From Alphaproteobacteria bacterium MarineAlpha5_Bin12 (GTDB taxonomy: Bacteria; Pseudomonadota; Alphaproteobacteria; HIMB59; GCA-002718135): DNA of 64,000 bases. The notes below the pieces were generated by a model that was not told the DNA's origin, searched no databases, and worked only from the letters and a program-made list of their open reading frames with translations. Location: assembly GCA_002937855.1 (NCBI GenBank), contig PTKS01000001.1:97948-161947 (forward strand), read 5' to 3'. Both the position numbers and the translations under genes were made by a program. Positions 6,791 to 64,000 of this stretch are shown here, in pieces (position 1 is the first letter of the stretch; the number at the start of each line of letters is the position of its first letter).

Positions 6791-6830
6791 AAATTTATTT
6801 TGTTCTATTTATGTTCTATAAAATAATAAA

Positions 6831-15895: not shown

Positions 15896-15972
15896 TGGTG
15901 GGCCCGCCTGGACTCGAACCAGGGACCACGCCGTTATGAGCGGCGCGCTCTAACCAACTGAGCTACAGGCCC
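15896..15972 (-). tRNA. tRNA with CAU anticodon (elongator Met or lysidine-dependent Ile2), CCA encoded
   Basis: The minus strand folds by eye as GGGCCTG-TA-GCTC-AGTTGGTTA-GAGC-G-CGCCG-CTCATAA-CGGCG-TGGTC-CCTGG-TTCGAGT-CCAGG-CGGGCCC-A-CCA. A G1-C72 pair excludes the initiator. Confidence 0.9.
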
Positions 15973-42233: not shown

Positions 42234-42295
42234 AATTTTAATAATTAAATTTCTTGATATAATTATATTTTAATGATTATCTTCTTTTGAAAAAT

Positions 42296-43471: not shown

Positions 43472-43536
43472 TTCTCTAAATTTAAATATTTTAATATATT
43501 TTTTATTATGTATAAAATAACTTATTAATATTTATT

Positions 43537-44049: not shown

Positions 44050-45374
44050 TAGCTGACTATTTTAGCTATGAATTTATTGCAATTTTTATGTTTGTAACAA
44101 TGTTACTTATGCTTCTCACTGGGCAAAGAGTTTTTGGAGCAATTGGATTTGTATCTGCTGCAGCTGCATTATTATTGTGGGGAGATGGGGCAATAGAAAT
44201 GCCTTACACAGCTACTTGGAAACTTTTCAAATGGTATCCTATGCTGACTTTACCTTTATTCATCTACATGGGATATATGATCTCAGAATCTGGAATTGCA
44301 AATGATCTTTATAAAATGTTTCATGTTTATTTTGGTGGAATAAAGGGTGGATTAGCAATAGGAACAATGGGTATGATGGTAGCTATATCGGCTATGAATG
44401 GTCTAAGCGTAGCAGGAATGGCAATTGGAGCTACGATAGCATTACCTGAAATGTTAAGAAGGAATTATGATAAAAGAATGATTACTGGAGTTGTTCAAGC
44501 TGGGAGCTCCTTAGGTATTTTAGTTCCTCCAAGTGTAGTTCTAGTTTTATATGGCATGATAGCAAGACAGCCCGTTAGCAAACTTTGGCTTGCAGGAGTT
44601 TTTCCAGGATTAATGATGGCAAGTCTTTTTATTCTATATATTTATTTACGTTGCAAATTTCAACCTGAGCTTGGACCAGTATTACCTAAAAAAGAAAGAG
44701 ATATTCCTTATATAGAAAAATTAAAATTATTAAGAGCTGGCATTGTTCCATTTGCTATATTTTTTGCAATGACCGGTTTATTTTTAATGGGTATTGCAAG
44801 TTTAGTTGAATGTTCGGCAGTAGGCGCACTTTGTGCAACAATTGCAGCAGGATTTAAGAAAAAATTAAATAAAGAGGTAATTGAAAAAACTCTTAGAAAA
44901 ACATTAGGGGTATCTTGTATGTTTATGTGGATCATTTTAGCTGCTCTTTGTTTTGGTGCAGTTTTTGATGGTATAGGTGCTGTAAAAGCTATTGAAACTC
45001 TCTTTATTGAGAGATGGGATTTAAGTCCTTGGGGTGTATTAATAATGATGCAATTATCATACATACTTATGGGCATGTTTCTTGACGATACAGCAATGTT
45101 GGTAATTGTAGCTCCTCTTTACGTTCCTTTAATTATAGCTCTTGGTTTTGACCCGATTTGGTACGGAGTACTTTACACTATAACTTGCCAAATAGCCTAT
45201 ATGACACCACCTTTTGGATATAATTTATTTTTGATGAGGGCTATGGCTCCAAGTGAAATAACTTTAATTGATATCTATAGATCAATTATTCCTTTTGTTT
45301 TAGTCATGTGTTTAGGGCTAAGCTTAGTTATGATATTTCCTGAAATAGCTACTTGGTTACCATCACTACTATAA
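44046..45374 (+). CDS. TRAP transporter large permease (DctM-like)
   Basis: 442-aa polytopic ORF typical of DctM. Confidence 0.85.
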   Translation: MIADYFSYEFIAIFMFVTMLLMLLTGQRVFGAIGFVSAAAALLLWGDGAIEMPYTATWKLFKWYPMLTLPLFIYMGYMISESGIANDLYKMFHVYFGGIKGGLAIGTMGMMVAISAMNGLSVAGMAIGATIALPEMLRRNYDKRMITGVVQAGSSLGILVPPSVVLVLYGMIARQPVSKLWLAGVFPGLMMASLFILYIYLRCKFQPELGPVLPKKERDIPYIEKLKLLRAGIVPFAIFFAMTGLFLMGIASLVECSAVGALCATIAAGFKKKLNKEVIEKTLRKTLGVSCMFMWIILAALCFGAVFDGIGAVKAIETLFIERWDLSPWGVLIMMQLSYILMGMFLDDTAMLVIVAPLYVPLIIALGFDPIWYGVLYTITCQIAYMTPPFGYNLFLMRAMAPSEITLIDIYRSIIPFVLVMCLGLSLVMIFPEIATWLPSLL

Positions 45375-45480
45375 AATATTAATAGTTTTTACTATAATTT
45401 ATGAATATTTATCTAATTTATTAAATAGACTTTTATTCAAATTAGAGCTAGAATTTTTTAATTGTTTTTTTGGAGGAAAA

Positions 45481-46551
45481 ATGAAAAATAATTCAAAATT
45501 AACTAAACGCCGTGATTTTTTAAAAAAAGCTGGCTTGGTTACTGCAGGAGCAGTTGGAGCAACAACTTTAAGCGCTCCATATGGTTATGCAGCTACTAAT
45601 CCAATTAAATGGAGGCTTCAAACATATTCTGGTGCGCCACTTGGTGCACATGTGGTTAAACCTCAAATAGAATCATTTAATCAAGCTGCTCATGGTGAAA
45701 TGGAAATTGAACTATATTATGCTGACCAATTAGTTCCTACAGATGAATTGTTTAGGGCAATGCAAGCAGGTACTATTGATGCTGTTCAAAGTGATGATGC
45801 AACAATGGGATCACCAGTAGATATACAAATATTTGGTGGTTATTTTCCTTTTGCTACTCGTTTTAGTTTAGATGTTCCTGCAATGTTTAAGTATTACGGT
45901 TTAAATGACATTTGGGCTGAAGCTTATGGTGAAGTTAAAAATGTAACTTGGCTAAGTACAAGTGCTTGGGATCCATGTGTATTATTTACTGTTAAAAAAC
46001 CTATAAGAAAACTTTCAGATATGAAAGGTCTAAGAGTGTTTGGTGTACCTACTGCAGGTAGATTTATGGCCAGATATGGTTTAATACCAGTAATAGTTCC
46101 TTGGGACGATGTTGAAGTTGCAATGCAAACAGGAGAACTTGACGGAGTTTGTTGGTGTGGATTTACTGAAGCTTATGAAGTTGGATGGGCAGATATTTGT
46201 AACTACGCACTATCAAATGCTATTACAGGTGCATGGTTTGGTTCATACTTTGTTAACACAAAAAGCTGGGAAGGAATATCACCTAAACTTCAAGAACTAT
46301 ACAGAATGTCTATAGACGGATCACATTATTATAGACAAGTATGGTACTGGGGTGGAGAAGCAGACCTAAGAGTTAACGGTAAAAAAATGGAAATCACTGG
46401 ACTACCTGCAAATGAATGGGCTGGAGTTGTTCAAGATGCCAAAGAATTTTGGGATGAAACATCAAAAATAAGTCCTAGATGCGCTAAAGTTGTAGATGCA
46501 TTTAATAAATATTCGGACACTATGGAAAAAGCTGGTTATCCTTATAGATAA
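45481..46551 (+). CDS. TRAP transporter periplasmic solute-binding protein with a twin-arginine signal peptide
   Basis: 356-aa ORF. KRRDFLKKAGLVTAGAVGA Tat signal. GGAGG Shine-Dalgarno 4 nt upstream. Noticeably GC-richer than neighbouring genes. Confidence 0.8.
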   Translation: MKNNSKLTKRRDFLKKAGLVTAGAVGATTLSAPYGYAATNPIKWRLQTYSGAPLGAHVVKPQIESFNQAAHGEMEIELYYADQLVPTDELFRAMQAGTIDAVQSDDATMGSPVDIQIFGGYFPFATRFSLDVPAMFKYYGLNDIWAEAYGEVKNVTWLSTSAWDPCVLFTVKKPIRKLSDMKGLRVFGVPTAGRFMARYGLIPVIVPWDDVEVAMQTGELDGVCWCGFTEAYEVGWADICNYALSNAITGAWFGSYFVNTKSWEGISPKLQELYRMSIDGSHYYRQVWYWGGEADLRVNGKKMEITGLPANEWAGVVQDAKEFWDETSKISPRCAKVVDAFNKYSDTMEKAGYPYR

Positions 46552-50135: not shown

Positions 50136-51026
50136 TTATCTTGCTTTTATACCGCGAAGTCTTTCTGCTCTTCGTCGGAGAATTTCAACAGTGGACAACA
50201 ATAAAATAGATAAAACAACTAAACATGTAGCCATACATAAAATAACGGGGCTTATTTCTTGCCTTATACCTGCCCACATTTGCTTAGGTATCGTTAGTTG
50301 ATCAAGACTTGCCATAAACATCACAATTACCACCTCATCAAATGATGTAATAAAGGCAAATAAAGCTCCCGATATCACTCCTGGTAAAATTAGAGGCATG
50401 ATAACTTTGAAGAAAGTTCTAATTGGTTTTGCTCCTAAACTTTGAGAAGCTTTAGTCATATTTGTATCAAACCCTACAAGCGTCGCGGTTACTGTAATAA
50501 CAACAAATGGTGTTGCAAGTGCTACGTGGGCCATAATAATTCCTGTAAATGTATAAACAAGATTAAATCTTGCATAAAAGAAAAACATACCTGCAGCAGT
50601 AATGATCAAAGGCACTATCATTGGAGATATCAAGATTGACATTATTAAGCCCTTGTAAGGCATATGTGGTCTACTTAAACCCAATGCAGCTAATGTGCCC
50701 AATGAAGTTGCAATAAATGTAGATGTTAATCCAACAAAAAAACTGTTTACTGTTGCATACATCCATTTATTACCACATGGAGTTGTAAGACTTTTATCAG
50801 TACAAATTCCAACCATATATCTATACCATCGTAATGACCAGGCTTCTGGATCAGGGGGAAAAGTAAGCATACCTTCAGTAAAAATCATAAAAGGTGATAC
50901 ACTAAATGATATAGGGATTATCGCTACTAATGGTGCGATAAGGAAAAAAAATACAGTTCCACAAAAGAATAAATAAAAATAATAAAATAATCTTTGTCCT
51001 GAGGTTGTGTAACTAGGTAATGCCAT
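50136..51026 (-). CDS. ABC transporter permease (PotC-like)
   Basis: 296-aa polytopic ORF. EAA-loop region SQSLGAKPIRTFFKVIMPLILPG. Confidence 0.85.
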   Translation of the reverse strand: MALPSYTTSGQRLFYYFYLFFCGTVFFFLIAPLVAIIPISFSVSPFMIFTEGMLTFPPDPEAWSLRWYRYMVGICTDKSLTTPCGNKWMYATVNSFFVGLTSTFIATSLGTLAALGLSRPHMPYKGLIMSILISPMIVPLIITAAGMFFFYARFNLVYTFTGIIMAHVALATPFVVITVTATLVGFDTNMTKASQSLGAKPIRTFFKVIMPLILPGVISGALFAFITSFDEVVIVMFMASLDQLTIPKQMWAGIRQEISPVILCMATCLVVLSILLLSTVEILRRRAERLRGIKAR

Positions 51027-51028
51027 TT

Positions 51029-52303
51029 TTATCCTAACTTTATATTATCAATTCCAACTATTTTATTATACAACCAATACAAAACTAACATTAAAACTAA
51101 AAGAATGCTCCCTAAAGCGGAGCATAAACCCCAATTTAAAGTAGTCTTTAGATGATATGCTATCCAGTGACCAATTAATTGTCCATCCTTGCCTCCTACT
51201 AATGCAGGAGTAATATAGTAACCTATTGCTAAAACAAATACTAATAAACCTCCAGCGCTTATTCCTGGAATTGTCTGCGGTAAGTATACTTTATAAAAAG
51301 CGCGAGCTGGTTTAGCTCCCAAATTTTGCGCAGCTCTCATATGACTCTTAGGAATTACTTTCATAACACTGTAAAGAGGTAAAATCATAAAAGGTAGAAG
51401 TATTTGCGTCATTGCTATTATAGTACCTGTCATATTGTATACCATTTGAATTCTCTGATCATCGTTAATGATTCCTAACCAAACCAATATACCATTTATT
51501 ACCCCATTTTGTTGAAGCATCACAATCCACGCGGTTGTTCGAACAAGTAAAGAAGTCCAAAAAGGTAATAAAACAAATATCATTAATAAATTACTATACC
51601 GAAGAGGAAGGTTAGCTAATAAATGAGCTACTGGAAAACCTAAAATTAAGCAAAAAAATGTCACGTAAATACTTACTTCAAGCGTTCTCCACCAAGTTCT
51701 TACATATATTCTTCTCTCTTCATTTTGTTTGACTACACTTCCATCTATATCGAAAGTCCTATCCATTGCATTCCAATAATAAATAGAAGTAGTTTCATTA
51801 ATCATTTGATTCATTGCAATCCAAAAAGTAGGATCACCCCAGCCTTTATGAATTTCTATCAATGTATCTTTATAGGAAACCGGTAATTCTCCAGATTTTA
51901 CAATCTTTTTTATTTGTCTTCTTGTTTTCTTAATCAGACTTTTCCAACCTGACTTAGAATAATTCATTCGCGTTAGAGCTTTACCAACTTGAATACCTTC
52001 TCCAGTTGCTAATTCATCAAAAATTGCTCTATAAACCTCTTCTGGGGGCAAATCCTGTCCATCCCATTTTTCATATTCTTCAAATGTTTTTGGAAAAACT
52101 GTGTTAATGTGACTATCATCAACACTTCTCATAAGCATATCGCCTATGGGCACAACAAATGTTATTAAAATAAATAACAATAGAGGAAAAACCAAAAGAA
52201 AGGCTCTAAGCTTATTCTTTCTTTCTGTTTTTTTGAGACTTACTCTTAATGGTATGCCATCAGTTGTTAATATTTCAGTATTAGTTGTAATTTTGACCTC
52301 CAA
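51029..52303 (-). CDS. ABC transporter permease (PotB-like) with a ~150-aa extracytoplasmic insertion after TM1
   Basis: 424-aa ORF. EAA-loop AQNLGAKPARAFYKVYLPQTIPG. Only a TTG start (52303) precedes TM1, so the start is uncertain. Confidence 0.8.
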   Translation of the reverse strand: MEVKITTNTEILTTDGIPLRVSLKKTERKNKLRAFLLVFPLLLFILITFVVPIGDMLMRSVDDSHINTVFPKTFEEYEKWDGQDLPPEEVYRAIFDELATGEGIQVGKALTRMNYSKSGWKSLIKKTRRQIKKIVKSGELPVSYKDTLIEIHKGWGDPTFWIAMNQMINETTSIYYWNAMDRTFDIDGSVVKQNEERRIYVRTWWRTLEVSIYVTFFCLILGFPVAHLLANLPLRYSNLLMIFVLLPFWTSLLVRTTAWIVMLQQNGVINGILVWLGIINDDQRIQMVYNMTGTIIAMTQILLPFMILPLYSVMKVIPKSHMRAAQNLGAKPARAFYKVYLPQTIPGISAGGLLVFVLAIGYYITPALVGGKDGQLIGHWIAYHLKTTLNWGLCSALGSILLVLMLVLYWLYNKIVGIDNIKLG

Positions 52304-52307
52304 ATAA

Positions 52308-52332
52308 AAAGGCGAGAACTAATCTCGCCTTT
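52308..52332 (-). terminator. Intra-operon rho-independent terminator/attenuator after the binding-protein gene
   Basis: 10-bp stem AAAGGCGAGA / TCTCGCCTTT with a 5-nt loop. On the minus strand it is followed by TTATTTGG. Lies 31 nt after the SBP stop. Confidence 0.7.
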
Positions 52333-52363
52333 AAATTAAATCATGTTTTGTATTAAATCAAGC

Positions 52364-53464
52364 TTAGTTACCCATCCAAGCAGCATATCGCTCGTCAATT
52401 TCAGCTCCATTATCAGACCACCATTCAGGATCACCCATAACTGAAATTTTTAATCTTTCAGGAGTGTTCGGCATGTGTGGCATAACATCAATACCTGTGT
52501 GGAACCAAGGCTCACCAGCTTTAATGATATCAATACCTGATGCTCTCATTGGACCATAAGTGATATATTTAGCTTGTTCAGCTTGAGATGCGGGAGACGT
52601 AGCATGAATTAAGAAATCCATTGCTTGATCTCTATTTGGTGCACCAGTCATTAAACATAAATATTCTTGTTCTAATAACTGACCTTCCCAAATATATTCA
52701 AAGTTTGCACCTTCACTAAGAACTGCTGCGCCAACACGACCATTGTACGCGATTGACATACTAACTTCACCACTACTTACTAATTCAAGTGGTTGAGCTC
52801 CAGCTGACCAGTGAACAATATGATCTTTAATTTTATCCATTACACCAAATGCTCTGTCTATAGCGCCACTTTGGCTCTTCAACACTTTGTAAACACCTTT
52901 TGGTGCAATTCCATCTGCAACTAGTGCCATTTGGATAAATCCATTTGCCCAAGTATGAACGCCTCTTTTACCAGGATAATTTTCTACATCAAAAAAGTCT
53001 GCAATTTTTGATGGTTGTTTATCTGCTGGAAAAGCACTAGGATCGAAAAATACAACATAAGTCCAGAAAATTTGTGGACCACAACAGTCTGATAGATTTT
53101 CAACTCCATTAGCTGCCATATCCGCAATAAGTCCATCTCCATTTTCTGCTGCAACGAAATTATCGTATTCCCCAGAAATGTCTTCAAATAGACCTTCATC
53201 ACATCCAGTAATTGCTTCATCTGGAAGAACGTCTACTAAATCCCATGCAACATTTCCACTTTCTACTTGTGCACGAACTTCACCTAAACCACCATTATAA
53301 TTTTCAAATTGAATAGCGCTAGGATCACTGTAAGTGTCTGCATATGCCTTAATTTGACTTTCTGTATACGCTCCACCCCAAGATGCTACAGTCACTGCAG
53401 ATGCTGAGAAAGAAAATAACGCGCATACCGATGCAAATAAGAAGGCTTTAATAAATTTTAACAT
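52364..53464 (-). CDS. ABC transporter periplasmic substrate-binding protein (PotD/PotF-like, family 1)
   Basis: Signal peptide MLKFIKAFLFASVCALFSFSASA. AGGAGG lies 8 nt before ATG 53464, so I prefer this start over tracked 53470. Markedly GC-richer and poorer in Lys/Asn than its neighbours. Confidence 0.85.
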   Translation of the reverse strand: MLKFIKAFLFASVCALFSFSASAVTVASWGGAYTESQIKAYADTYSDPSAIQFENYNGGLGEVRAQVESGNVAWDLVDVLPDEAITGCDEGLFEDISGEYDNFVAAENGDGLIADMAANGVENLSDCCGPQIFWTYVVFFDPSAFPADKQPSKIADFFDVENYPGKRGVHTWANGFIQMALVADGIAPKGVYKVLKSQSGAIDRAFGVMDKIKDHIVHWSAGAQPLELVSSGEVSMSIAYNGRVGAAVLSEGANFEYIWEGQLLEQEYLCLMTGAPNRDQAMDFLIHATSPASQAEQAKYITYGPMRASGIDIIKAGEPWFHTGIDVMPHMPNTPERLKISVMGDPEWWSDNGAEIDERYAAWMGN

Positions 53465-53588
53465 AATCATGTCCTCCTATTTTATAGTTTGTTTGATTAA
53501 GTACTTATTCAAAGTTGTTTTATATAACACGAATAGGATTAAAAAAAAGGCTAAATTTGTTATAAATTTGAAATATATATTGATTTTA

Positions 53589-54677
53589 TTAGGTATTTTT
53601 GATGTCTAACGCCCTTATATCAGATGAGTTCCAAGAAACATTAATTTTATCTCCTTCGTTTAAGGATAAAGATCCTTCGTTTGGAGTTTTAACAATAAAT
53701 TGATCATTATTGCACACATTTAATCTTATTCTTATATGGTCACCTAAATAGATCAGTTCTTTAACTTCTCCTTCAAAGTTATTTTCTTCTTCTTTATTTG
53801 AGTTTATTGTGACTCTTTCTGGGCGTACTGATAATTCAGTCGCATCTCCTTCTGAATTTACATTTACTTTTAAAGCTTTCACTTGGCTCCCTCCGTTTAC
53901 TTCTACATCACATAAATCACCTTCAATTTTTTTTACTATTCCTGTAAATCTATTATTTTCTCCTATGAATTGCGCCACGAAAGAATTTTCAGGTTTTTCA
54001 TAAAGAACATCAGGTGTAGATAACTGTTGAACAACTCCATCATTAAATACAGCTATTCTATTGGACATAGTTAATGCTTCACTTTGATCATGAGTTACAT
54101 AAACTACTGTAATTCCAATTCTTTCATGAATATGTTTAATCTCATATTGCATTTGTTCTCTCAAATTTTTATCTAACGCTCCAAGAGGCTCATCCATTAA
54201 GACTAAGCGAGGTTCAAAAACTAATGCTCTAGCTAAAGCAACTCTTTGTTGTTGACCACCCGATAATTGAGCTGGGAAGCGATTACCAAATTCACCCAAT
54301 TCAACCATATCTAATGCCTTTTTGACTCTTGTAGTTACATCTGATTTAGAAATTTTTCTTACCTCTAAAGGAAAAGCAAGATTTTCTTGAACTGTCATAT
54401 GAGGAAAGAGAGCATAATTTTGAAATACCATTCCAATTTCTCTTTCGTAGGGTGGAATTTTGCTTATTGGTTTATTATCTAAATAAATTTCACCATTTGT
54501 AGGAGTTTCAAATCCTGCCAACATCATCAGTGTTGTTGTTTTGCCTGAACCAGAAGGTCCTAACATTGTAACAAACTCACCTTTGGATATATTTAAATTT
54601 AAGTTTTTAACAACTAAAACTTCGCCATCATAACTCTTATCAATTTTTTCAAAAACTACAAATCCACTGTTTTCCAT
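53589..54677 (-). CDS. ABC transporter ATP-binding protein (PotA-like, with C-terminal TOBE-type domain)
   Basis: Walker A GPSGSGKTT, signature LSGGQQQRVALARAL, Walker B LVLMDEPLGALD. ATG 54677 preferred over tracked GTG 54683. Confidence 0.9.
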   Translation of the reverse strand: MENSGFVVFEKIDKSYDGEVLVVKNLNLNISKGEFVTMLGPSGSGKTTTLMMLAGFETPTNGEIYLDNKPISKIPPYEREIGMVFQNYALFPHMTVQENLAFPLEVRKISKSDVTTRVKKALDMVELGEFGNRFPAQLSGGQQQRVALARALVFEPRLVLMDEPLGALDKNLREQMQYEIKHIHERIGITVVYVTHDQSEALTMSNRIAVFNDGVVQQLSTPDVLYEKPENSFVAQFIGENNRFTGIVKKIEGDLCDVEVNGGSQVKALKVNVNSEGDATELSVRPERVTINSNKEEENNFEGEVKELIYLGDHIRIRLNVCNNDQFIVKTPNEGSLSLNEGDKINVSWNSSDIRALDIKNT

Positions 54678-54772
54678 ATACACACTTTTAATTTATTTAT
54701 AGACATTTGTAATAGACGAATAACTAGCAAAATGTCAATATTAATAGCTATATTATTTTATTTTTTTTATCA

Positions 54773-55642
54773 ATGAATATAAATGGTTTTTTTTCTGCAA
54801 TCTTGGCAGCATCTTTATTTGGTATGATACCAACGTTTACAAAAATATCATATGGGTACCAAATCAGCCCACAATTAGCGGTGTTTACTAGATATGTACT
54901 TGCTTTAATTTTAATAATAGTTCCATTTATTATTTACAAAAATAATTATAAAATTATTAAACAAAAAATTTTTCTACTTTTACTTATTTCTTTAGGTTCT
55001 ATATGCCTTTCAACTGGGTTGCTAGTATCTGTAATATTTATTCCAGTAAGTTTAGTGGCATTAATTTTTTATACGTACCCTTTAATTGTCCTAGGATATT
55101 CAAGTATTTTTGGAAAGAAATTAAATAAGATTCAAATAATAGGTTTTTTTTTAGCTTTTGCAGGACTGGGATTAGCTTTAGGCCCAAACTTTGAAACATT
55201 AAATATATATGGAATAATGTTAGCATTATTAGCATCAATTGGAGCAGCAACTATATTAATTACAAATGAAATTTTAGCTAAAGATTTGAATCCCTTTACA
55301 ATTAATGCATTTGTTAATTTTTTTTGTTTTTTAGTTTTAGTATTAGTTATAGGGATAAATTTTGATATTGATTTAAATGTTCCAAACTTGGGAAAAATTT
55401 ATATATTTTTTGCCTCATTATTTTACTGTGCAGCTTTTTTTGCACAATTAATAGCTGTAAGTTATATTGGCTCTACAAAAACTTCTCTAATATTATATTT
55501 AGAACCTATAGTGGCAATAATTTCAGCAATAATACTATTAAATGAATCTTTAACAAAAATTCAAACTTTAGGAACAATAATAGTCATATTTTCTTTGGTA
55601 ATTTCTTTAAGAAAAAATACTAACCAATTGTATTCTTCATAA
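54773..55642 (+). CDS. EamA/DMT-family transporter
   Basis: 289-aa 10-TM ORF. Its 3' end overlaps the convergent M19-like gene by 23 nt. Confidence 0.75.
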   Translation: MNINGFFSAILAASLFGMIPTFTKISYGYQISPQLAVFTRYVLALILIIVPFIIYKNNYKIIKQKIFLLLLISLGSICLSTGLLVSVIFIPVSLVALIFYTYPLIVLGYSSIFGKKLNKIQIIGFFLAFAGLGLALGPNFETLNIYGIMLALLASIGAATILITNEILAKDLNPFTINAFVNFFCFLVLVLVIGINFDIDLNVPNLGKIYIFFASLFYCAAFFAQLIAVSYIGSTKTSLILYLEPIVAIISAIILLNESLTKIQTLGTIIVIFSLVISLRKNTNQLYSS

Positions 55643-56609
55643 AATTTAGCCAATTAGATCCCATTATCTTGATTGCATTTTTTTCAGAAATTCCAGATTT
55701 AATTAATGCATTATAAATATTTATTATGTCACTACCTTTTCTAAACCATTGTGGTTGGGTTGGCCATTTTATACTTTTATTTTTTGATTCACCATAATCC
55801 AATTTTTTTGTCCATTTTCCATTTCTCATCCAAACAACCACTTCATCTTTCCAATTACTACATAAATCACTTCCAATTCCAATACTCTCGATACCAATTA
55901 GATTTATCAAATCCTTAACCATTTGACAAAAATCTTCTATTTTGCATTTGTTATGATTTTTTAAATGATAAGGGTATAAACTTAGTCCTATAAATCCATT
56001 TTTATTTGAAAGTTTTTTTAAGACATCATTTTCAATGTTTCTTTTTGATTTATGAAAAAAAAATGGATTTGCATGTGAAATGGCCACGGGTTTTTTAGAA
56101 ATTTTTATTGCATCTAGGCATGTTTTTTTTCCCGCATGACTTAAGTCAACAATTATTCCTAGATTATTCATTTCTTCAATTACTTGATGTCCGAATCTTG
56201 AAATACCCGAGTCAACTGCTTCAAAGCATCCTCCGCCTATAGCAGTTTGATTGTTATATGTTAATTGCATAAATCTCAGCCCTAGAGAATAAAATTTTTC
56301 TAATAAAAAAATATTATTTTCTATAGGAGCTGAATTTTGAAATCCAAAAATTATAGCTACTTTGTTATTTTTTTTTGCTTTTATTATATCATCAGTATTT
56401 TTGGCATGAGTAATTATATCTTTATTTTTTTTAATTCTGATTTGCCATTTTTTAATTTTATTTATTGCCTCTTCAGTGTTTTCCCAATACACAATAGTTA
56501 CGTGAACAGCTGTAAGGCCACCCTGCCATAAGTCTTCCAATATTTTTCTGTTCCAATTGCAATATTGAAGACCATCAATAAGAATATGATTTTTTAATGG
56601 ATTTTTCAT
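55620..56609 (-). CDS. M19 (renal dipeptidase)-like amidohydrolase with a partly degenerate metal site
   Basis: 329-aa ORF with no signal peptide. DLSHAG, ISHANP and GSD are retained. The usual DGHND is DGLQY and the bridging Glu region reads FGFQNS. Confidence 0.7.
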   Translation of the reverse strand: MKNPLKNHILIDGLQYCNWNRKILEDLWQGGLTAVHVTIVYWENTEEAINKIKKWQIRIKKNKDIITHAKNTDDIIKAKKNNKVAIIFGFQNSAPIENNIFLLEKFYSLGLRFMQLTYNNQTAIGGGCFEAVDSGISRFGHQVIEEMNNLGIIVDLSHAGKKTCLDAIKISKKPVAISHANPFFFHKSKRNIENDVLKKLSNKNGFIGLSLYPYHLKNHNKCKIEDFCQMVKDLINLIGIESIGIGSDLCSNWKDEVVVWMRNGKWTKKLDYGESKNKSIKWPTQPQWFRKGSDIINIYNALIKSGISEKNAIKIMGSNWLNFMKNTIG

Positions 56610-56688: not shown

Positions 56689-58353
56689 ATGAAATCAAAA
56701 GAAATTATGACATTAAAAAGGATGGGTTCGAAATACCCATCTAGACTAAGTTTTTCAAGGAGTATGCTTAGATTATTGGTTAGAGAAAAATGGAAAATTA
56801 GAAAATCAAAATTTGATTTAGATAAAAATGGCTATGGTACAGTTATCTATGAGGTGGATACTTTGAAAGGAATTTATTCTCTTATATGCTTTTCTCGTTT
56901 TTTGAATGATGAAGAAAGAAGTGATAGGGTAATTGCTGATAAATGGGATACTGCTTATACACTTCACATAGGAAAAATTAGTAAAAAAAATTTAAATAGA
57001 TTAAAAGAAAATGTTCCACTTCAAGAATTAGGCAGAAATTCACCAAATGAAATAATTTTAAGTCGGGCAAATAAAAGTGTGCGTTTGTTCAAAAAAGTAG
57101 TCGAATGTCTTTCAAATGGTGAACAGCCTAGTATTAAAGAAATTAATGAAGTCGGATATTTAATGAGAACAACAGCCGTGTATGGAAGTGGAAAATTTGG
57201 ATTATCTGATTTTGAAAGAACAAAAAAAGCTACATTATTTGATCAGCCATTTAGAGCAGAAATGTTATCTGTATATATTATAAGAGAATTTAGCGTAGAT
57301 TTAGTTGAGCATATAGCACATCATATTAATCCTAAAAAAGCAGTAAAACTTGATAAAAAAATTAAACAACACCTAGGTATTGGAAACTCTACTGGCTTAG
57401 GAATGGCTCCCTTTGTTATTAAACATCCAAAATTGATTCATAAATGGATGAACCAGTTTAATCTTGCAGTTAACAAAATATATTCTTTGAAAAATATAAA
57501 TCAAAAAAAATTAAATGAATTTATTAAATTAATTGAAAAGTCTAAAGACTATTTAAAAGAAGTAAAAACTGTTGATAGTTTTCAAATTAAAAAAAATGCG
57601 AAAGCTTTAGCAGATATTAAAAAAACAATTATATTTTTGAAAAAAAATAATCCTAAAAAAAATAATTATCAATGGAAAAATATTATCGATTTTGCTTACA
57701 AAAATTTAAACTATGATGCTCAAGAGATAATAAAAGTTCAGCTTATAGAATTATACCCTGAAATTGCTGACCCGTTAGGAGATGACATGTCAAATTCTGA
57801 TGATTTATATATAAAATCAAATGAAAAAATTTCTTCATTAATTGAATTTATTGAAAAAAATTATCAATGGGCGATTAAAATAGATTTTAATAAAAAAGAA
57901 AATTCATATTTATTTTGGTATATCTCAGAAGAAAAATTAGAGCCTAGATTGGGAGAAAGATATAATGAAAAAGGTTCTGAACTTGAACAACCCTTAGGAA
58001 TTGGAAAATTGGTTCAAATTTTGTATAATTTTTTACTTCAACATAAAGAAACTCATAAAGAAACAGTTGCTAAATTCTTACTTAGTTATCCCGAATACAG
58101 GGGAATTATCAGAAGAATACAAACATTATCAGATTACAAATTTGGAGAAGTAAAAGATAATATTTTAGCAAAAAATACTATGCCTATAGATATGTTGCGA
58201 TTTAAATTATCTTTTTTTGGTGCATCGCGCTATGATCCAAAATCTGATAGATGGTTAAGAGTAAGTTTTTTTGCTGGTGCTCCATTTTATAGAGATTTAT
58301 CTAATAAAAATGTTGATACTTGGGGTTTTACAACTATGAATTCTTACAATTGA
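56689..58353 (+). CDS. Hypothetical protein, 554 aa, no motif I can recognise
   Basis: Long uninterrupted ORF in an AT-rich genome where random ORFs are short. Soluble, with no TM segment or signal peptide. Coupled to the next ORF by a TTGA overlap. Confidence 0.65.
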   Translation: MKSKEIMTLKRMGSKYPSRLSFSRSMLRLLVREKWKIRKSKFDLDKNGYGTVIYEVDTLKGIYSLICFSRFLNDEERSDRVIADKWDTAYTLHIGKISKKNLNRLKENVPLQELGRNSPNEIILSRANKSVRLFKKVVECLSNGEQPSIKEINEVGYLMRTTAVYGSGKFGLSDFERTKKATLFDQPFRAEMLSVYIIREFSVDLVEHIAHHINPKKAVKLDKKIKQHLGIGNSTGLGMAPFVIKHPKLIHKWMNQFNLAVNKIYSLKNINQKKLNEFIKLIEKSKDYLKEVKTVDSFQIKKNAKALADIKKTIIFLKKNNPKKNNYQWKNIIDFAYKNLNYDAQEIIKVQLIELYPEIADPLGDDMSNSDDLYIKSNEKISSLIEFIEKNYQWAIKIDFNKKENSYLFWYISEEKLEPRLGERYNEKGSELEQPLGIGKLVQILYNFLLQHKETHKETVAKFLLSYPEYRGIIRRIQTLSDYKFGEVKDNILAKNTMPIDMLRFKLSFFGASRYDPKSDRWLRVSFFAGAPFYRDLSNKNVDTWGFTTMNSYN

Positions 58354-59057
58354 TAGTGAGTTATTCATTTTACGAAATATACATAACAGCACAAAGAGCT
58401 TTTACAGCTATGGGATTTCCTTATGGCTGTGACGAAGATGCGGCATTTATCATAACTTGGCTGGAGCTAAATAATTTTCAAGGAATTAAAATCTTATCAA
58501 ATTTAATTTCTGAAATGGACCAAAAATATGAAGGAAAAATTGAAATAAATAATTTAAATGAAAAAATAAATTTTAAAAATAAATCAATTTTAATGAAAGG
58601 TGCTGGATTAATAGACTATCTTAATTCAGAAATTAAAAATAAAAATAAAATTTCTATAAACATCATAAATTGCAAAGATGGAATATTATTTCTACCTCTT
58701 CTTTATAAAAAATCTGAATATGTGAATTCATATCAATTAACTTTTCATGATGTTAATAATGAGATAAAAACTTATGAAATTTTTGATAAAGAAATAATAT
58801 TATGTCAAAAAAAATATAGTGATTTATTAAATCAAAACACTGTCTGTATTGTCATTAATAACAATAAAGAAAAAGTAAATAATTCTAATAAGAATAGTAT
58901 TATTTCAGAAAAAAAAATTCAAAAAAATCTTGCGCAATCTATAAAACCAAAATCAGATTCATGGGATAAAATTACAAAATTAGCAAATAAAACATTTGTT
59001 CCTGAATCTGAAGAGTCAAGAAATAAAGGAGCGGGTGGAGGAAATGACAATGATTAG
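58350..59057 (+). CDS. Hypothetical protein, ~235 aa, Gly-rich acidic C-terminus
   Basis: Tracked as 58320..59057 (TTG). In-frame TTG 58350 overlaps the upstream TGA (TTGA); GTG 58356 is an alternative start. No recognisable catalytic motif. Confidence 0.6.
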   Translation: MIVSYSFYEIYITAQRAFTAMGFPYGCDEDAAFIITWLELNNFQGIKILSNLISEMDQKYEGKIEINNLNEKINFKNKSILMKGAGLIDYLNSEIKNKNKISINIINCKDGILFLPLLYKKSEYVNSYQLTFHDVNNEIKTYEIFDKEIILCQKKYSDLLNQNTVCIVINNNKEKVNNSNKNSIISEKKIQKNLAQSIKPKSDSWDKITKLANKTFVPESEESRNKGAGGGNDND

Positions 59058-59070
59058 TTTTAATTTAGAT

Positions 59071-60183
59071 TTATATAAAAGGTAATGCACAAAGCTTAGC
59101 TTGGTAAATATCATTGCCAATAACTATTTGATATTCTTGTGAAACATTCCAGAATGGTTTATTAATCATTGCTATACCTATAACTTTTTTAAAATTAGGA
59201 GAATATACACCCGATCTCATATCTCCAACAATATTATTATCTTTATCTTTTAGTTCTATCGAACCTGAAACGTTAATGGTTTTAGTTTCAATAATAATTC
59301 CCATTAATTTTCTTGTAATTCCTTTAGTTTGAATTTTTTTTAATTCGTTTTTTCCTATAAATTCCACATCACTGTCTATATTTATAAATTTGTCAAAACC
59401 ACATTCAAAAGGATTATCATTATTATCAAAATCATTACCACAAGATAATAAAGCGCTTTCAATTCTTTCTATAAGATTTGGGTATCCTGGTCTGATATTG
59501 AATTCTTTTCCAATATCAAATAAAGAATCATACAATTCTAACCCTGACTTTGTATTTTCAACATATATTTCGTAACCACCCTGCTTTGACCAACCAGATC
59601 TTGCTATTAAATGGTCTGTGTCTTTAAATTCAAAATAATCAAAGTCAAAAAACTTTAGTCCTCTAATTTTTTCTCCTAAAATTTTTTCCATTAAAATATA
59701 TGATTTTGGTCCTTGTACAGCTAATATGTTTACATTAGGTTCTATAATGTTAACTTTTAGGTCATATCCTATAGCTAATCCTTTAGCATATAAAATTACA
59801 TCACTATCTGCTATTGAAAGCCACCATTTTTCAATACTATGTCTTAAAACTACAGGATCATTAATCAAACCACCTTTATTATCAATGATTGGACAATAAT
59901 AACATCTACCATCTTTTGATTTTGATAAATCTCTACAAGTCATTAATTGCACAAGCCTTGCTGAATCTTTCCCAGAAATTTCTACCTGCCTTTCTCCAGC
60001 CACATCCCAAACCTGAACGTGTTCTTTTAGATGATAATAATCATCTTCTAAAGAATTATTAAATCCAGTTGGGAGTAACATATGATTATAAACAGTATAA
60101 GAAGTAAGACCCTGTTTTTCTAATCTAGAAGTATAGGGAGTACTTCTTATTCTTCTAGATTTTGATATTAAAAAATTTTTCAC
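59071..60183 (-). CDS. dmdA: GcvT-fold aminomethyltransferase, DMSP demethylase DmdA-like
   Basis: 370-aa ORF. From memory, [20 protein letters not shown].., ..[24 protein letters not shown].., ..[16 protein letters not shown].., ..NPFECGFD.. closely track the Pelagibacter ubique DmdA sequence. Confidence 0.72.
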
Positions 60184-60201
60184 TTTATTCTCTTTTATTT
60201 T

Positions 60202-61368
60202 CTAAACTAAATGCAAACTTCTTGGAAAATTACAAAACAATTCACATCCATTTTCTGTAACTCTTATTGATTCACTTATTTCTAATCCCCAAGTGTCCAT
60301 CCACATTCCTGCCATCAAATGATAAGTTACATTTGGTCTCAATTCTGTCATATCATTTTTTCTTATACTTAATGTATGTTCGCCCCAGTCTGGTGGATAT
60401 CCAATCCCAATAGAATAACCAGCTCTTGAATCTTTTTTTACATCATATTTTTCTAATACATTCCAAAAAGCTGTTGCTACATCATTAGCTGTGTTTCCAG
60501 GCTTTGTAAATTTAATTGCATTTTCTACACTTTCATTTGTAATTTTCATTGTTTCTCTAATTTTATCATTTGGTTTTCCTATATATACAGTTCGTGCCAT
60601 AGGGCAATGATATCGATTTTTAACTCCTCCCAATTCAATTATAGTTCCTTCATTATTAGAAAATTTTTTATCTGATGGGGTTAAATGAGCGGCTGAAGCG
60701 GCATTTCCGCTTGCTAATATTATGGTTAGTCCTGAATACTCACCTCCCATTTTGTCATTTCCAGAAATCAATGCTTGTTGAATATTTCCAGCCACCTCAT
60801 TTTGTCTAATACCAGGCTTAATTGAATCATAAGCTTTCTGCATACCAAGTTGAACCAATACACTAGCTTTTTTCATATATTCAATTTCTGCATCAGACTT
60901 AATAAGTCTTACCCAGTTAACTAACAAATGAGCATTTCGAAATTTTGCATTGGGACATTGAGAGGTTAATCTATAATGAATTTCAGCAGTATAATAATAA
61001 CTATCCATTTCAACACCTATTGATTTATTATCCCAATTTTTACTCTTTAAAAAGTCTGATACAAAATCAAAAGGATGTTGTGGGGGGTATTGTATTAATT
61101 TTTCGGGGTAACCTAAAATATTTTTTTCATTTAAATATGTTGTAATCTTAGCTCCATTAGCATCTTGTTTTCTTCCAATCCAAACTGGTTCTGTATAATC
61201 AATATTCAATATTATTAATTGTGGAACATAAAATGACCAACCGTCATAACCAGATAAGTAGTACATATTTGATGGATCTGTGCAAATTAAAATATCTATC
61301 CCATTCTTAGTCATAGCATTTTTAGTTTCTTTTATTCTTTTTTCAAATTCTTCTTTAGAAAAATTCAT
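60202..61368 (-). CDS. Creatinase/ectoine-hydrolase (DoeA/EutD)-type M24-fold hydrolase lacking the canonical metal ligands
   Basis: I trimmed the ORF to ATG 61368 (MNFSKEEF..), which forms an ATGA overlap with the upstream stop. Creatinase_N-like N-terminus. GYSIGIGYPPDWGEH. The Asp ligand positions read IELGG / HCPMART. Confidence 0.75.
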   Translation of the reverse strand: MNFSKEEFEKRIKETKNAMTKNGIDILICTDPSNMYYLSGYDGWSFYVPQLIILNIDYTEPVWIGRKQDANGAKITTYLNEKNILGYPEKLIQYPPQHPFDFVSDFLKSKNWDNKSIGVEMDSYYYTAEIHYRLTSQCPNAKFRNAHLLVNWVRLIKSDAEIEYMKKASVLVQLGMQKAYDSIKPGIRQNEVAGNIQQALISGNDKMGGEYSGLTIILASGNAASAAHLTPSDKKFSNNEGTIIELGGVKNRYHCPMARTVYIGKPNDKIRETMKITNESVENAIKFTKPGNTANDVATAFWNVLEKYDVKKDSRAGYSIGIGYPPDWGEHTLSIRKNDMTELRPNVTYHLMAGMWMDTWGLEISESIRVTENGCELFCNFPRSLHLV

Positions 61369-62150
61369 TTTTCTGACTCCAATAATTTTCCAAATCCATA
61401 TATTGGAGAATTCATTTTTATAGAACGTAAACAATCCCAAATTGTCACTTGATTGCTTGTTAAAACTGGCTTTTTAATAATATTTTCTATATCTTTTATA
61501 ATACTTAATATTGGCATTGCTGTACATGATATAAAAACTCCATCTGATTTATTGTCATTAATTGATTTAATTGTATTGATAATTGATTCCTTTTTTATCA
61601 TTGCTACATCTTTATCTGACTCAATATTGAAAGAATTGAAGCTTGTAACATTAATATTGTTTTTTTCCAAATAATCAAAAATTGTTTTATTAACAATTTT
61701 AGGATAAGGAGTTAATACAGCAACTTTATTTAATGATAGTTTTTTAAATGCTTTCAAAGCTGCAGTGATGGGTGTAGTTACATAACAATTTTTCTTTACA
61801 GCAGATATTTGTTTTATTACTTCTTTTTCACCTATTGCTATTGTCCCAGAAGTACATCCATAGGCAATCGTATTAATTGACTCTCCAGGCAAAATATTTT
61901 CAGCTATAACAGATAATTTATTTTTCATCTTTAAATAATTCTTACGATTCATAGGATTTTTAAAAGGTATTCTATTAACATATAAATTAACTGGTTTTTT
62001 ATAGATAAGATTTCTAAAATCTTGCTCTATGGTAAAATCAGTGGAAAGCGTTATAAGACCAATTCTGGGTGTCTCATTTTTTTGAAACTCAGCTTCATAA
62101 TTATTTTGTAAAAAATTTTTCAATTTTGTTTTGGAAAATAATCTTCGCAA
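61365..62150 (-). CDS. Asp/Glu/hydantoin racemase-superfamily protein (maleate isomerase / EutA-like) with both catalytic Cys
   Basis: RIGLITLSTD, AYGCTSGT and FISCTAM. Start is either tracked TTG 62150 or in-frame TTG 62123, which forms a TTGA overlap with the upstream stop. Confidence 0.7.
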   Translation of the reverse strand: MRRLFSKTKLKNFLQNNYEAEFQKNETPRIGLITLSTDFTIEQDFRNLIYKKPVNLYVNRIPFKNPMNRKNYLKMKNKLSVIAENILPGESINTIAYGCTSGTIAIGEKEVIKQISAVKKNCYVTTPITAALKAFKKLSLNKVAVLTPYPKIVNKTIFDYLEKNNINVTSFNSFNIESDKDVAMIKKESIINTIKSINDNKSDGVFISCTAMPILSIIKDIENIIKKPVLTSNQVTIWDCLRSIKMNSPIYGFGKLLESEK

Positions 62151-63238
62151 CTGCCTTCTCTATAAACATCCGTAGTTGCGCAATGTAATGCGCCTCCAAA
62201 AGGATATGCATCTCTAAATGGCACTGGTATTACTTCCATACCTAGTTTATCTAACTGCTCTAACTGGTATACCTCGCTTTCTTCAACGCAGACAGTTTTG
62301 GGATCAACTACTAAAACATTCATGCTTAACCATACGCTTGAATAACATAAAGGGGGGGGTTGATTATGAGCAGGTTGAGCTGCATCCACTATTTCCCAAT
62401 CATTATTATAAAATATTTTTTTTTGTTCCTCTGGTAATTGCCTTGATGAGTTATTTAAAACTAGACCCGGTCTTATAGGTGTAAAAGTAGCATCAATGTG
62501 AATTGGATATGGGTCGCCTGGAAAATTAAGAATGTGCACTCTATGATTAGAAAAGTGTCTTTTTATCCAATTTGCACCTTTAATATTTGTTGTAAATCCA
62601 TTTTGTATAAAAAGATCCTTACCCATTCTTAAAATATCTGCAGCATCAAATAGAGGCTCTTCTTCAGTTGTTACAAATTCTTTATTTTTTACCATATCTA
62701 ATCTCTCTTTAATTGTAATTCCATCACTCAGATAATTTTTTCTATAAGATTTTTCTGTTAATCTTGGTTTTGGAGCAGATTCCCATTTCATATTTTTATC
62801 TTCATCAAAATATTTTTGAAGAAGGGGTCTATAACAAAGATATTCAAACCATCTTGATCTGTAAGACATTGTGGCTTCCAACATCTCATTTCCTAGAGTA
62901 AGAATCACATCTCTTGGTGGCATACAACCAAACATGCTCCCTATTTCCCAATCAGGAGTCATTGCTTTTTGATTAAAATTAATAGGTGTTGGTCTATCAA
63001 CTTTTATTCCTCTCTTTTCTAAAATTGATGATAATCCATCTAATTGTGCATTACCTTTATCAATTGATTCTTGAGTTCTTGGTCCATGTTTTCCTTTCAT
63101 ATCACTATCTTCAGGTATTTTTGGATCAGTAGCAGGCTCAGGTGGTGGTATACAACACCCATCAGCTCTACCGACTATTACATGTTTAAGAGGATCCCAT
63201 TCATTCCAAGAATTTACAATTATATTTTTTTCTGTCAT
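62120..63238 (-). CDS. Amidinotransferase, close homologue of L-arginine:glycine amidinotransferase (AGAT)
   Basis: 372-aa ORF. NSWNEWDPLKHVIVGR, MPPRD, FDAADI, PIHIDATF and GGALHCATTD parallel the AGAT sequence, including the Asp/His/Cys triad. Confidence 0.82.
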   Translation of the reverse strand: MTEKNIIVNSWNEWDPLKHVIVGRADGCCIPPPEPATDPKIPEDSDMKGKHGPRTQESIDKGNAQLDGLSSILEKRGIKVDRPTPINFNQKAMTPDWEIGSMFGCMPPRDVILTLGNEMLEATMSYRSRWFEYLCYRPLLQKYFDEDKNMKWESAPKPRLTEKSYRKNYLSDGITIKERLDMVKNKEFVTTEEEPLFDAADILRMGKDLFIQNGFTTNIKGANWIKRHFSNHRVHILNFPGDPYPIHIDATFTPIRPGLVLNNSSRQLPEEQKKIFYNNDWEIVDAAQPAHNQPPPLCYSSVWLSMNVLVVDPKTVCVEESEVYQLEQLDKLGMEVIPVPFRDAYPFGGALHCATTDVYREGSCEDYFPKQN

Positions 63239-63268
63239 TATTTATGTTGATATTATATAGTTTTATTT

Positions 63269-64000
63269 ATGGATATTAGTAATAAAAAACTTTTCAAACA
63301 GCAATGTTTTATTAATGGTGAATGGATAGATTCAGAAGATAATCAAGTTTTAGAAGTTAATAATCCTGCTACACAAGACATTTTAGGAACTATTCCTAAT
63401 TGTGGAAAAAATGAAACAAAAATTGCAATTCTAGCTGCTGAAAAGTCTTGGACTAATTGGAAGTCAAAAACAGCAAAAGAAAGATCTGGTATTTTAAAAA
63501 AATGGTTTAAATTAATTGAAGAAAATCATGAAGATTTATCTAAAATAATGACCTTTGAACAAGGAAAATCTATCAATGAATCTAGAGCAGAAATTACCTA
63601 TGGAGCTTCATTTGTGGAATGGTATGCTGAAGAATGTAGAAGAGTTTATGGAGATACTATACCTGATATTTTAGAAGACAGAAGAACAATAGTCATTAAA
63701 CAACCTGTAGGCGTAGTTGGAGCTATTACGCCATGGAATTTTCCAAGTTCAATGATAACAAGAAAGTGTGCTCCTGCATTAGCTGTCGGCTGCCCTGTTA
63801 TAATTAAACCAGCAAGCCAAACTCCTTATTCTGCACTAGCATTAGCAGCTCTTGCTGAAGAAGCAGGATTTCCAAAAGGGACAATAAACGTAATAACAGG
63901 ATCTGCTAAAGATATAGGTTTTGAATTATCAACTAATCCAATTGTAAGAAAATTATCATTTACTGGATCAACTGAAATTGGAAAAATACTTTTAAAACAA
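63269..64000 (+). CDS. gabD: Succinate-semialdehyde dehydrogenase-type aldehyde dehydrogenase, N-terminal 244 codons (runs off the right edge)
   Basis: Not in the ORF track. My translation is MDISNKKLFKQQCFINGEWIDSEDNQVLEVNNPATQDILGTIP..VGAITPWNFPSSMITRK..FTGSTEIGK, the GabD/SSADH pattern. Confidence 0.8.
   Translation, partial: MDISNKKLFKQQCFINGEWIDSEDNQVLEVNNPATQDILGTIPNCGKNETKIAILAAEKSWTNWKSKTAKERSGILKKWFKLIEENHEDLSKIMTFEQGKSINESRAEITYGASFVEWYAEECRRVYGDTIPDILEDRRTIVIKQPVGVVGAITPWNFPSSMITRKCAPALAVGCPVIIKPASQTPYSALALAALAEEAGFPKGTINVITGSAKDIGFELSTNPIVRKLSFTGSTEIGKILLKQ

Follow-up and report, generated by a model that had tools for sequence, protein, structure and literature searches.

The stretch of DNA analysed here, called the window throughout, covers 64,000 nucleotides of contig PTKS01000001.1 (positions 97,948 to 161,947) from Alphaproteobacteria bacterium MarineAlpha5_Bin12. 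It contains a block of four tightly packed genes, which encode a homologue of arginine:glycine amidinotransferase (AGAT), a EutA-like protein, an M24 protein of the EutD/DoeA (ectoine hydrolase) clade and the dimethylsulfoniopropionate (DMSP) demethylase DmdA. Coordinates are those of the window, and L-numbers (e.g. L088) are the labels of the compared genome and metagenome loci in this analysis. The window is AT-rich (GC about 0.21-0.35), and by sequence its source organism is SAR11-type, since a neighbouring protein of 554 amino acids is 99% identical to a protein of a "Pelagibacteraceae bacterium". The four genes are listed in the order of transcription:

62120-63238, minus strand: gene 1, AGAT-family L-arginine/ornithine amidinotransferase, 372 amino acids
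61365-62123, minus strand: gene 2, EutA-like protein of the Asp/Glu-racemase / Amdase superfamily, 252 amino acids from the TTG at 62123
60202-61368, minus strand: gene 3, M24 protein of the EutD/DoeA-clade ectoine-hydrolase type, 388 amino acids from the ATG at 61368
59071-60183, minus strand: gene 4, DMSP demethylase DmdA, 370 amino acids, GTG start

Gene 1 terminates in ...AAT TGA and is overlapped by the TTG start of gene 2 (TTGA), while gene 2 terminates in ...AAA TGA and is overlapped by the ATG start of gene 3 (ATGA), so that gene 2 shares 4 nt with each of its neighbours; a longer open reading frame, from 62150, is possible for gene 2. The TAG stop of gene 3 is followed by 18 nt, AAAATAAAAGAGAATAAA, with an AAGAG-type Shine-Dalgarno-like stretch, and then by the GTG of gene 4. 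On the other side, a 30-bp spacer separates gene 1 from the start, at 63269, of a divergent aldehyde dehydrogenase gene of the GabD type. These coordinates, overlaps and spacers could be read directly from the sequence just as the original prediction had given them, and the motifs it had named (FDAAD, IHIDATF and LHCATTD in gene 1, YGCTSG and ISCTAM in gene 2, IELGG and HCPMART in gene 3) are all present in the translations. The 4-nt overlaps are identical in independent gene calls on public contigs. Promoter-like sites in the block are not more frequent than in shuffled sequences and no terminator was found inside it, both scans being uninformative in such AT-rich DNA, and the Rfam search of the window gave no riboswitch or other RNA element in or near the block. 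The sole Rfam matches in the window are RNase P RNA class A (6827-7176, minus strand, 307 bits) and one tRNA (15899-15972, minus strand).

The same four-gene order is found in L088, L097-L099 and L179-L181, and the block is present on no fewer than 15 independent contigs, sampled in various oceans and by various projects, each with the identical neighbouring 554-amino-acid protein. Compared with L088 and L099, the ratio of nonsynonymous to synonymous substitution rates (dN/dS) is 0.08-0.20 for all four genes, which means that they are under purifying selection. Since the order recurs on many contigs and dN/dS is this low, assembly error and gene decay can both be discounted as explanations of the block.

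Gene 1 matches human AGAT (1JDW/1JDX) over the full length with 286 bits (E 4e-84) and 40% identity. Its C353, H247 and D198 align with the human triad C407, H303 and D254, and the triad is invariant across 23 homologues and 16 sequences from diverse genomic contexts. Also invariant are D110, D249, R266 and S301, the counterparts of human D170, D305, R322 and S355, which we take to be the arginine/ornithine-binding residues. The triad and these residues indicate an AGAT-type enzyme, with arginine:glycine amidino transfer as one possible activity. Two lid positions differ from the human enzyme (N300 is replaced by Y244 and M302 by I246), and both changes are near-invariant throughout the bacterial family. 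Neither Pfam nor NCBIfam gave a match for gene 1 at default thresholds, and arginine deiminase scores only 18.6 bits. Each of the best 120 homologues listed shares 70% identity or more with gene 1, and several phyla are represented among them, with Rhizobiales-type and deltaproteobacterial genomes among their sources. Among the compared loci, the active-site and lid segments are the same whether AGAT stands in a creatinase, EutA or transporter context, except in L093 and L182, where the lid reads GDPFPTHID and GDLMPTHID instead of the otherwise invariant GDPYPIHID. These two variant-lid AGATs head operons of the EutA-EutB-EutC type, and the altered lid may reflect a change of specificity. Besides, several NCBI records of metagenome-assembled genomes label close AGAT homologues as "serine/threonine protein kinase" (P0033, P0045, P0070, P0073, P0077 and P0089), evidently a propagated misannotation, and the record of homologue cluster P0118 places it on a contig of 140 Mb, which may stem from a eukaryotic assembly.

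Genes 2 and 3 both have their best family among the ectoine-utilisation models. Gene 2 matches PF17645 (Amdase, 77 bits) and, as its best family, TIGR02990 (EutA) with 213.6 bits, yet under the equivalog cut-off of 318, and the cysteines of its YGC and SC motifs align with both catalytic Cys of maleate isomerase 4FQ7. It also stands in a eut context: it adjoins gene 3, and its counterparts in L183 and L093 precede EutE, EutB or EutC. The best family of gene 3 is TIGR02993 (EutD) with 484.2 bits, again under the equivalog cut-off (613); its SAR11 homologues score 459-488 on the same model. Gene 3 matches DoeA 6TWK with 368 bits and 42-43% identity, the next PDB family reaching 98 bits, and carries the DoeA-clade motifs E-L/I-G/A-G...RYHxPMxRT and YPPDWGE, which are absent from creatinase and other M24 proteins. 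These sequence features place gene 3 in the EutD/DoeA ectoine-hydrolase clade, with hydrolysis of ectoine as its predicted activity. Creatinase was considered for gene 3 and ruled out (about 20% identity to the true SAR11 creatinase versus 43% to DoeA).

Gene 4 is an orthologue of verified DmdA. It scores 536.2 bits on NF009133 (DmdA), above the cut-off of 410, and matches Candidatus P. ubique DmdA 3TFH end to end with 583 bits and 67% identity; the N-terminus read from its GTG start matches that of the P. ubique protein. This score and this identity also ruled out a paralogue other than DmdA. In other SAR11 lineages (L106, L116, L128, L157 and about 20 more), the same position after the DoeA gene is held by a second DmdA-clade gene (e.g. 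L116:1191-2315), which is about 40% identical to both the window DmdA and P. ubique DmdA and reaches 388-410 bits on NF009133, right at the model's cut-off (410). A possible counterpart is the DmdA-like aminomethyltransferase SAR11_1265 of HTCC1062 (PMC3160333).

To describe the gene order in related organisms, gene 1 was used as anchor in species-representative genomes (80 loci, mostly Pelagibacteraceae, 72-79% identity) and gene 3 in metagenomes (78 loci). It turned out that the four-gene order joins two separately conserved pairs, AGAT-EutA and DoeA-DmdA, and is not conserved across Pelagibacterales: EutA or DoeA lies near AGAT in 1 of the 80 AGAT-anchored loci (L086) and DmdA in none of them. 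The usual SAR11 context of AGAT consists of EamA, a true creatinase, AGAT and a threonine-aldolase/GntG-like aldolase dependent on pyridoxal phosphate (e.g. L031:5868-10170, HTCC8051). The AGAT-adjacent M24 protein in SAR11 is the true creatinase (532 bits to 1CHM), which adjoins in about 25 of the 80 loci, the aldolase doing so in about 30. In the metagenome loci, EutA stands upstream of DoeA only in close relatives, whose DoeA is 84-99% identical; other lineages have soxBDAG upstream of DoeA instead. Downstream of DoeA, about 23 contigs carry the DmdA orthologue, about 23 the second DmdA-clade gene and about 14 neither. Most DoeA contigs go on with DUF3726, the 554-amino-acid gene and M19, and a Pot-type transporter follows the DoeA block in 23 of the 23 contigs long enough.

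Several loci carry a longer version of this region. In other lineages the AGAT-EutA pair, mostly accompanied by the divergent succinate-semialdehyde dehydrogenase gene, stands at the head of eut-type operons. L093 (MarineAlpha5_Bin9) has the same flank as the window lineage (SSADH-ROK-BioY-MgtE, SSADH being succinate-semialdehyde dehydrogenase), and its AGAT-EutA pair is followed by EutB (376 bits, cut-off 413), EutC (449 bits, above 408) and a 480-amino-acid pyridoxal-phosphate enzyme, then by a DoeB2-like M20, a third type of M24, a trans-3-hydroxyproline-dehydratase-like gene, soxB and soxD. In L183, an AGAT 87% identical to that of the window precedes EutA, EutE/DoeB (TIGR02994 as the only family match, 363 bits versus a cut-off of 403), EutB and an aldehyde dehydrogenase, after which come the same M20, M24, dehydratase and soxB as in the L093 island and a second EutA-like gene. 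The operon of L182 starts in the same way as those of L093 and L183, and L119 and L103 link M20-M24-...-soxBDAG to DoeA-DmdA; a deacetylase thus stands beside these relatives of the block, as TIGR02994 in L183 and as M20 in L093, L119 and L103. L086, a distant SAR11 single-cell genome, shows an SSADH-like gene and, divergently, AGAT-creatinase-EutA-DoeA-PotADBC-M19, and its EutA and DoeA are adjacent at 50-51% identity to those of the window. In sister lineages, about 13 kb lie between genes 2 and 3, which hold eutE/B/C, M20, a second M24, the hydroxyproline-dehydratase-like gene and soxBDAG. The window order looks like this long island minus about 13 kb, and from the comparison we infer that the order may have arisen by loss or absence of that segment; a change in the other direction, by insertion, may also account for the difference.

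The original prediction had regarded the combination of genes as matching neither the doe/eut sets nor a creatine pathway, had raised the possibility that gene 4 acts on a different onium substrate, and had proposed a four-gene order shared across Pelagibacterales as its test. Its four family assignments and catalytic residues were borne out by profile, PDB and alignment matches, and the link of AGAT to these genes is real. These three points fared otherwise: genes 2 and 3 are of the EutA/EutD clades and related operons carry eutE/doeB, eutB, eutC and a DoeB2-like M20, another onium substrate is unlikely for an orthologue of verified DmdA, and the order is confined to close relatives. Since genes 2 and 3 fall in the EutA/EutD clades and eut genes come directly after AGAT-EutA in related lineages, the window appears to hold a reduced eut-type cluster. 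A firm grouping of gene 3 with characterised ectoine hydrolases, together with a full doe/eut set elsewhere, had been named in the prediction as evidence against it, and the reduced cluster goes a long way in that direction. Of the undescribed pathway it proposed, the families and the AGAT link stand, while the orphan creatinase-type pair and the new four-step route found no support.

Outside SAR11, AGAT homologues were also found beside related genes. In a deltaproteobacterium (L006), AGAT is accompanied by an M24 protein (40% identical to the third type), by a EutA-like gene (211 bits; 44% identity with the second such gene of L183), and by a Pot-type transporter orthologous to that of the window (ATPase 71%, permeases 53-55%, binding protein 39%). 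In Filomicrobium (L026), an agmatinase-like ureohydrolase, the orthologous Pot transporter and AGAT stand together, and L040 has the orthologous transporter with AGAT. In L014, AGAT is followed first by an Asp/Glu racemase and next by an arginase-family fusion protein, and L010 and L076 have ArgJ and ornithine carbamoyltransferase near AGAT. Other contexts are unrelated, such as transposons, GBT/OpuA regions, or a tripartite ATP-independent periplasmic (TRAP) transporter with FGase. The association of AGAT with racemase-type, amidino/guanidino-hydrolase and arginine/ornithine genes is recurrent, not universal. Besides, the third M24 type, which is 20-25% identical to both creatinase and DoeA, occurs at L093:16421-17578 and, together with a second EutA-like gene, at L183:16922-18863 and L006:9170-11227. 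The pair is kept between the SAR11-type islands and the deltaproteobacterium at 40% and 44% identity, and by sequence it resembles a parallel "racemase + M24 hydrolase" module.

Around the block, the window contains the following genes:

63269-64000, plus strand: GabD-type succinate-semialdehyde dehydrogenase, 5' part, running off the window (E. coli GabD 3JZ4, 315 bits)
58320-59057, plus strand: DUF3726 protein, overlapping the 554-amino-acid gene, convergent with dmdA
56689-58353, plus strand: 554-amino-acid protein without a known family, convergent with dmdA
55620-56609, minus strand: M19 renal-dipeptidase-type amidohydrolase (PF01244, 258 bits)
54773-55642, plus strand: EamA-family permease (PF00892)
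50136-54683, minus strand: PotABCD-type ABC transporter with ATPase, SBP_bac_8 binding protein and two permeases (Pfam/NCBIfam)
40950-46551 (40950-42233 minus, 42287-43471 plus, 43537-46551 plus): cluster with a DddP-like M24 (NF043017, 368 bits, cut-off 600)
37715-38743, minus strand: trans-3-hydroxy-L-proline-dehydratase-like protein of the proline-racemase family (467 bits, cut-off 550)

E. coli GabD is the best PDB match of the divergent dehydrogenase; a complete version of 483 amino acids is called in L179-L181, and the L093 orthologue passes the SSADH model TIGR01780 (713 bits versus 646). The pair of 554-amino-acid and DUF3726 genes follows DoeA(/DmdA) in most contigs reaching that far, the exception being the L128/L129/L143 type. 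The 554-amino-acid protein has no Pfam or NCBIfam family. For this pair, more than 8000 homologues were found and none is functionally named, the few with a name being "hypothetical protein"; an AlphaFold model has a mean confidence (pLDDT) of 68, and Foldseek against PDB gave nothing significant, only weak kinase-like matches. The M19 gene is a near-constant companion of the DoeA gene in most lineages, including L086. The binding protein of the Pot transporter has 8JV1, a "spermidine/putrescine-binding protein", as its best PDB match (233 bits), and DoeA-linked SAR11 contigs have two types of binding protein, 69-98% and about 41% identical to that of the window.

From about 37 kb on, the window is rich in genes of solute and amine catabolism, including an aldehyde dehydrogenase like betaine-aldehyde dehydrogenase and a DAO protein. 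About 17 kb from dmdA, the DddP-like M24 has a GbcA-like Rieske oxygenase (117 bits) and a TRAP transporter as neighbours, a group that may form another module related to DMSP or betaine. The hydroxyproline-dehydratase-like gene is 55% identical to its counterpart inside the eut-type island of L093. The original prediction had noted the absence of DoeB, EutB and EutC from the locus, and this extends to the whole window, where tblastn with the L093 proteins found no EutB, EutC, EutE/DoeB or DoeB2-like M20. The locus thus falls short of a complete eut/doe set, as Atf/DoeD, EnuR and Ehu/Ueh are missing as well. The only transporters near the block are the Pot-type ABC system and a weakly scoring TRAP system, and no creatinase or sox genes were found within the 64 kb.

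We propose, with moderate confidence, that the block is a trimmed, lineage-specific piece (MarineAlpha5_Bin12 type) of a modular island for the catabolism of compatible solutes, which supplies four parallel entry enzymes. The four enzymes would act side by side on different imported solutes and not one after another. Together with gene 2 as its EutA-type partner, gene 3 would open the ring of an ectoine-type cyclic amidine to give N-acetyl-2,4-diaminobutyrate, gene 4 would transfer a methyl group from DMSP to tetrahydrofolate, and gene 1 would exchange amidino groups between arginine/ornithine on one side and a small guanidinoacetate/creatine-type solute, guanidino or amino, on the other, serving nitrogen salvage. 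The adjacent PotABCD-type importer would bring in the solutes, and the divergent GabD-type dehydrogenase would oxidise the semialdehyde end product (the DoeC/Ssd role). The four genes are packed and probably co-transcribed. Enzymes outside the eut/doe set would have to replace the deacetylase and the transaminase, and the M19 enzyme may be the replacement for the former. Ectoine is a major phytoplankton exometabolite (PMC13012070). Parallel action is favoured because the modules (AGAT, creatinase, EutA, eutBCE, sox, DoeA and DmdA) vary in their combinations independently of each other, a point against a single serial pathway, because the AGAT site is unchanged by context in all but two of the compared loci, and because a Pot-type importer adjoins.

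Several observations weigh against this proposal. Genes 2 and 3 score under the NCBIfam equivalog cut-offs, which leaves ectoine as the substrate unproven, and within the 64 kb there is no deacetylase DoeB/DoeB2, diaminobutyrate transaminase, EnuR or Ehu/Ueh-type transporter. The binding protein of the Pot transporter is at most a putative orthologue of SAR11_1336. Because synteny is high throughout SAR11 genomes, conserved gene order within the group counts only weakly for functional coupling. From the 4-nt overlaps, genes 1-3 are expected to be translationally coupled, as is more common among genes serving one pathway, and AGAT, a EutA-like or Asp/Glu racemase and an amidino/guanidino hydrolase occur together in L006, L086, L093, L183 and L014, a recurrent grouping that hints at a real functional triad.

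The last two points keep alive the main rival, a novel serial pathway in which AGAT, the EutA-like racemase and an M24- or ureohydrolase-type hydrolase act in sequence on one chiral guanidino or cyclic-amidine solute, with ornithine/arginine as the amidino carrier and DmdA merely co-expressed. Besides the stop/start overlaps that tie genes 1-2-3 together, it can draw on the triads of unrelated genomes (L006 with its Pot transporter, L086, L014, and L026 with its agmatinase-like enzyme) and on the ArgJ or ornithine carbamoyltransferase genes of L010 and L076. Yet AGAT has no EutA or DoeA neighbour in nearly all of the 80 genome loci, and DoeA comes without AGAT or EutA in most lineages; the M24 partner varies by locus between creatinase, DoeA and the third type, the AGAT active site and lid stay constant across contexts in all but two compared loci, and no substrate can be named that requires all three chemistries. 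We consider such a pathway unlikely.

It is similarly doubtful that the substrate of genes 2 and 3 is not ectoine but some other cyclic amidine or related solute, e.g. hydroxyectoine alone or an undescribed analogue, with the canonical downstream steps being unnecessary in this SAR11 clade. This would agree with the scores under the equivalog cut-offs (EutA 214/318, EutD 484/613), with a window that lacks DoeB, DoeD, EnuR and an Ehu/Ueh-type transporter, and with the M19 protein and the two proteins without a known family as the constant neighbours, and the parallel pair of M24 and EutA-like genes in L183 and L006 suggests that several substrate-specific versions exist. However, AT-rich streamlined genomes often fall under curated cut-offs, gene 3 has the DoeA-clade motifs and is 43% identical to 6TWK (compared with 48% for homologues beside M20 deacetylases), and related SAR11-type operons carry EutE/DoeB, EutB and EutC, for each of which the ectoine-utilisation model is the best or only family match.

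A further reading, improbable in our judgement, is that the highly conserved bacterial AGAT homologue forms the core of an undescribed handling of guanidino and cyclic-amidine compounds, together with M24 amidinohydrolases (creatinase, the DoeA type and the third type) and EutA-type racemases and with ornithine/arginine as carrier; in SAR11 it would possibly be an arginine:sarcosine amidinotransferase. A field study reported that marine communities make creatine from sarcosine and not from glycine, with no enzyme known (PMC9321204), and this report, together with the pairing of creatinase and AGAT, makes sarcosine a candidate amidino acceptor. If true, such an AGAT would be the unidentified enzyme behind creatine synthesis from sarcosine and would form an arginase-like cycle with creatinase. 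Finally, we consider it very unlikely that streamlining or deletion merely joined four genes without shared function, genes 2 and 3 being leftovers of a lost eut pathway: the order is limited to close relatives (DoeA 84-99% identical where EutA is upstream), sister lineages have about 13 kb extra between genes 2 and 3, and short intergenic spacers are found everywhere in SAR11, but all four genes have dN/dS of 0.08-0.20 and intact catalytic residues, EutA and DoeA are also adjacent in the distant L086, and many independent contigs, of varied ocean and project origin, carry the block.

Among known systems, the eut/doe system, AGAT, DmdA and the SAR11 creatinase have all been described (PMC5924519, PMC13188858, PMC3160333, PMC3686209). 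With creatinase (1CHM), gene 3 shares the M24 fold and the loss of the metal ligands, whereas its identity to the true SAR11 creatinase is just about 20%, the creatinase motifs are missing from it, and it groups with DoeA. With the one-carbon and osmolyte catabolism of SAR11 (SAR11_0246 DmdA, soxBDAG, creatinase; PMC3160333, PMC3686209), the block shares gene 4 as DmdA orthologue, and creatinase and sox genes occur in the same island of sister lineages. However, dmdA of HTCC1062 sits with mhpC, fadD (dmdB) and mmgC (dmdC) (PMC3160333), whereas in the window it comes after a DoeA-type gene with neither dmdB nor dmdC nearby, and creatinase and sox genes are absent as stated above.

Bacterial relatives of AGAT include SxtG, HsvA and StrB1. 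Gene 1 resembles AGAT/GATM (1JDW) in its full-length homology (40%), the Cys-His-Asp triad and the arginine/ornithine residues, and differs in the lid (Tyr for N300, Ile for M302) and in having no GAMT partner; the bacterial partners are instead creatinase, EutA-like racemases, M24 hydrolases, arginase-family proteins and a Pot-type transporter. This AGAT homologue, at least 70% identical across several phyla among the best 120 homologues listed, is without an assigned role in bacteria, and its recurrent association with EutA-like racemases and M24 hydrolases is unexplained. The literature searched, whose coverage is incomplete, contains no description of SAR11 eut-type genes and none of an amidinotransferase in eut clusters or combined with ectoine hydrolase, which leaves the AGAT link to these genes undescribed as far as that literature goes; this is no more than an absence of evidence.

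SAR11 is the most abundant heterotroph of the surface ocean, and the ectoine, DMSP and creatine-type compounds that plankton release are major N-, S- and C-bearing solutes. Should the proposal hold, SAR11-type bacteria would have in this block a compact kit of entry enzymes beside a multi-solute importer. The closest known systems are eutABCDE-ssd-atf in Sinorhizobium meliloti and Ruegeria pomeroyi and doeABCD in Halomonas elongata (PMC5924519). The window differs from them in lacking EutB, EutC, EutE, Atf, EnuR and Ehu/Ueh, in scores under the equivalog cut-offs, in an operon that is headed by AGAT and ends with dmdA, and in its M19, DUF3726 and 554-amino-acid neighbours. It resembles them in that EutA- and EutD/DoeA-clade genes stand in one operon with a GabD/Ssd-type dehydrogenase adjoining, and related SAR11-type loci add EutB, EutC, EutE/DoeB and the DoeB2-like M20. 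The EutD phylogeny survey of 2026 (PMC13188858) does not discuss SAR11, and the proposed function would extend the ectoine-type catabolic genes to a group outside recent surveys.

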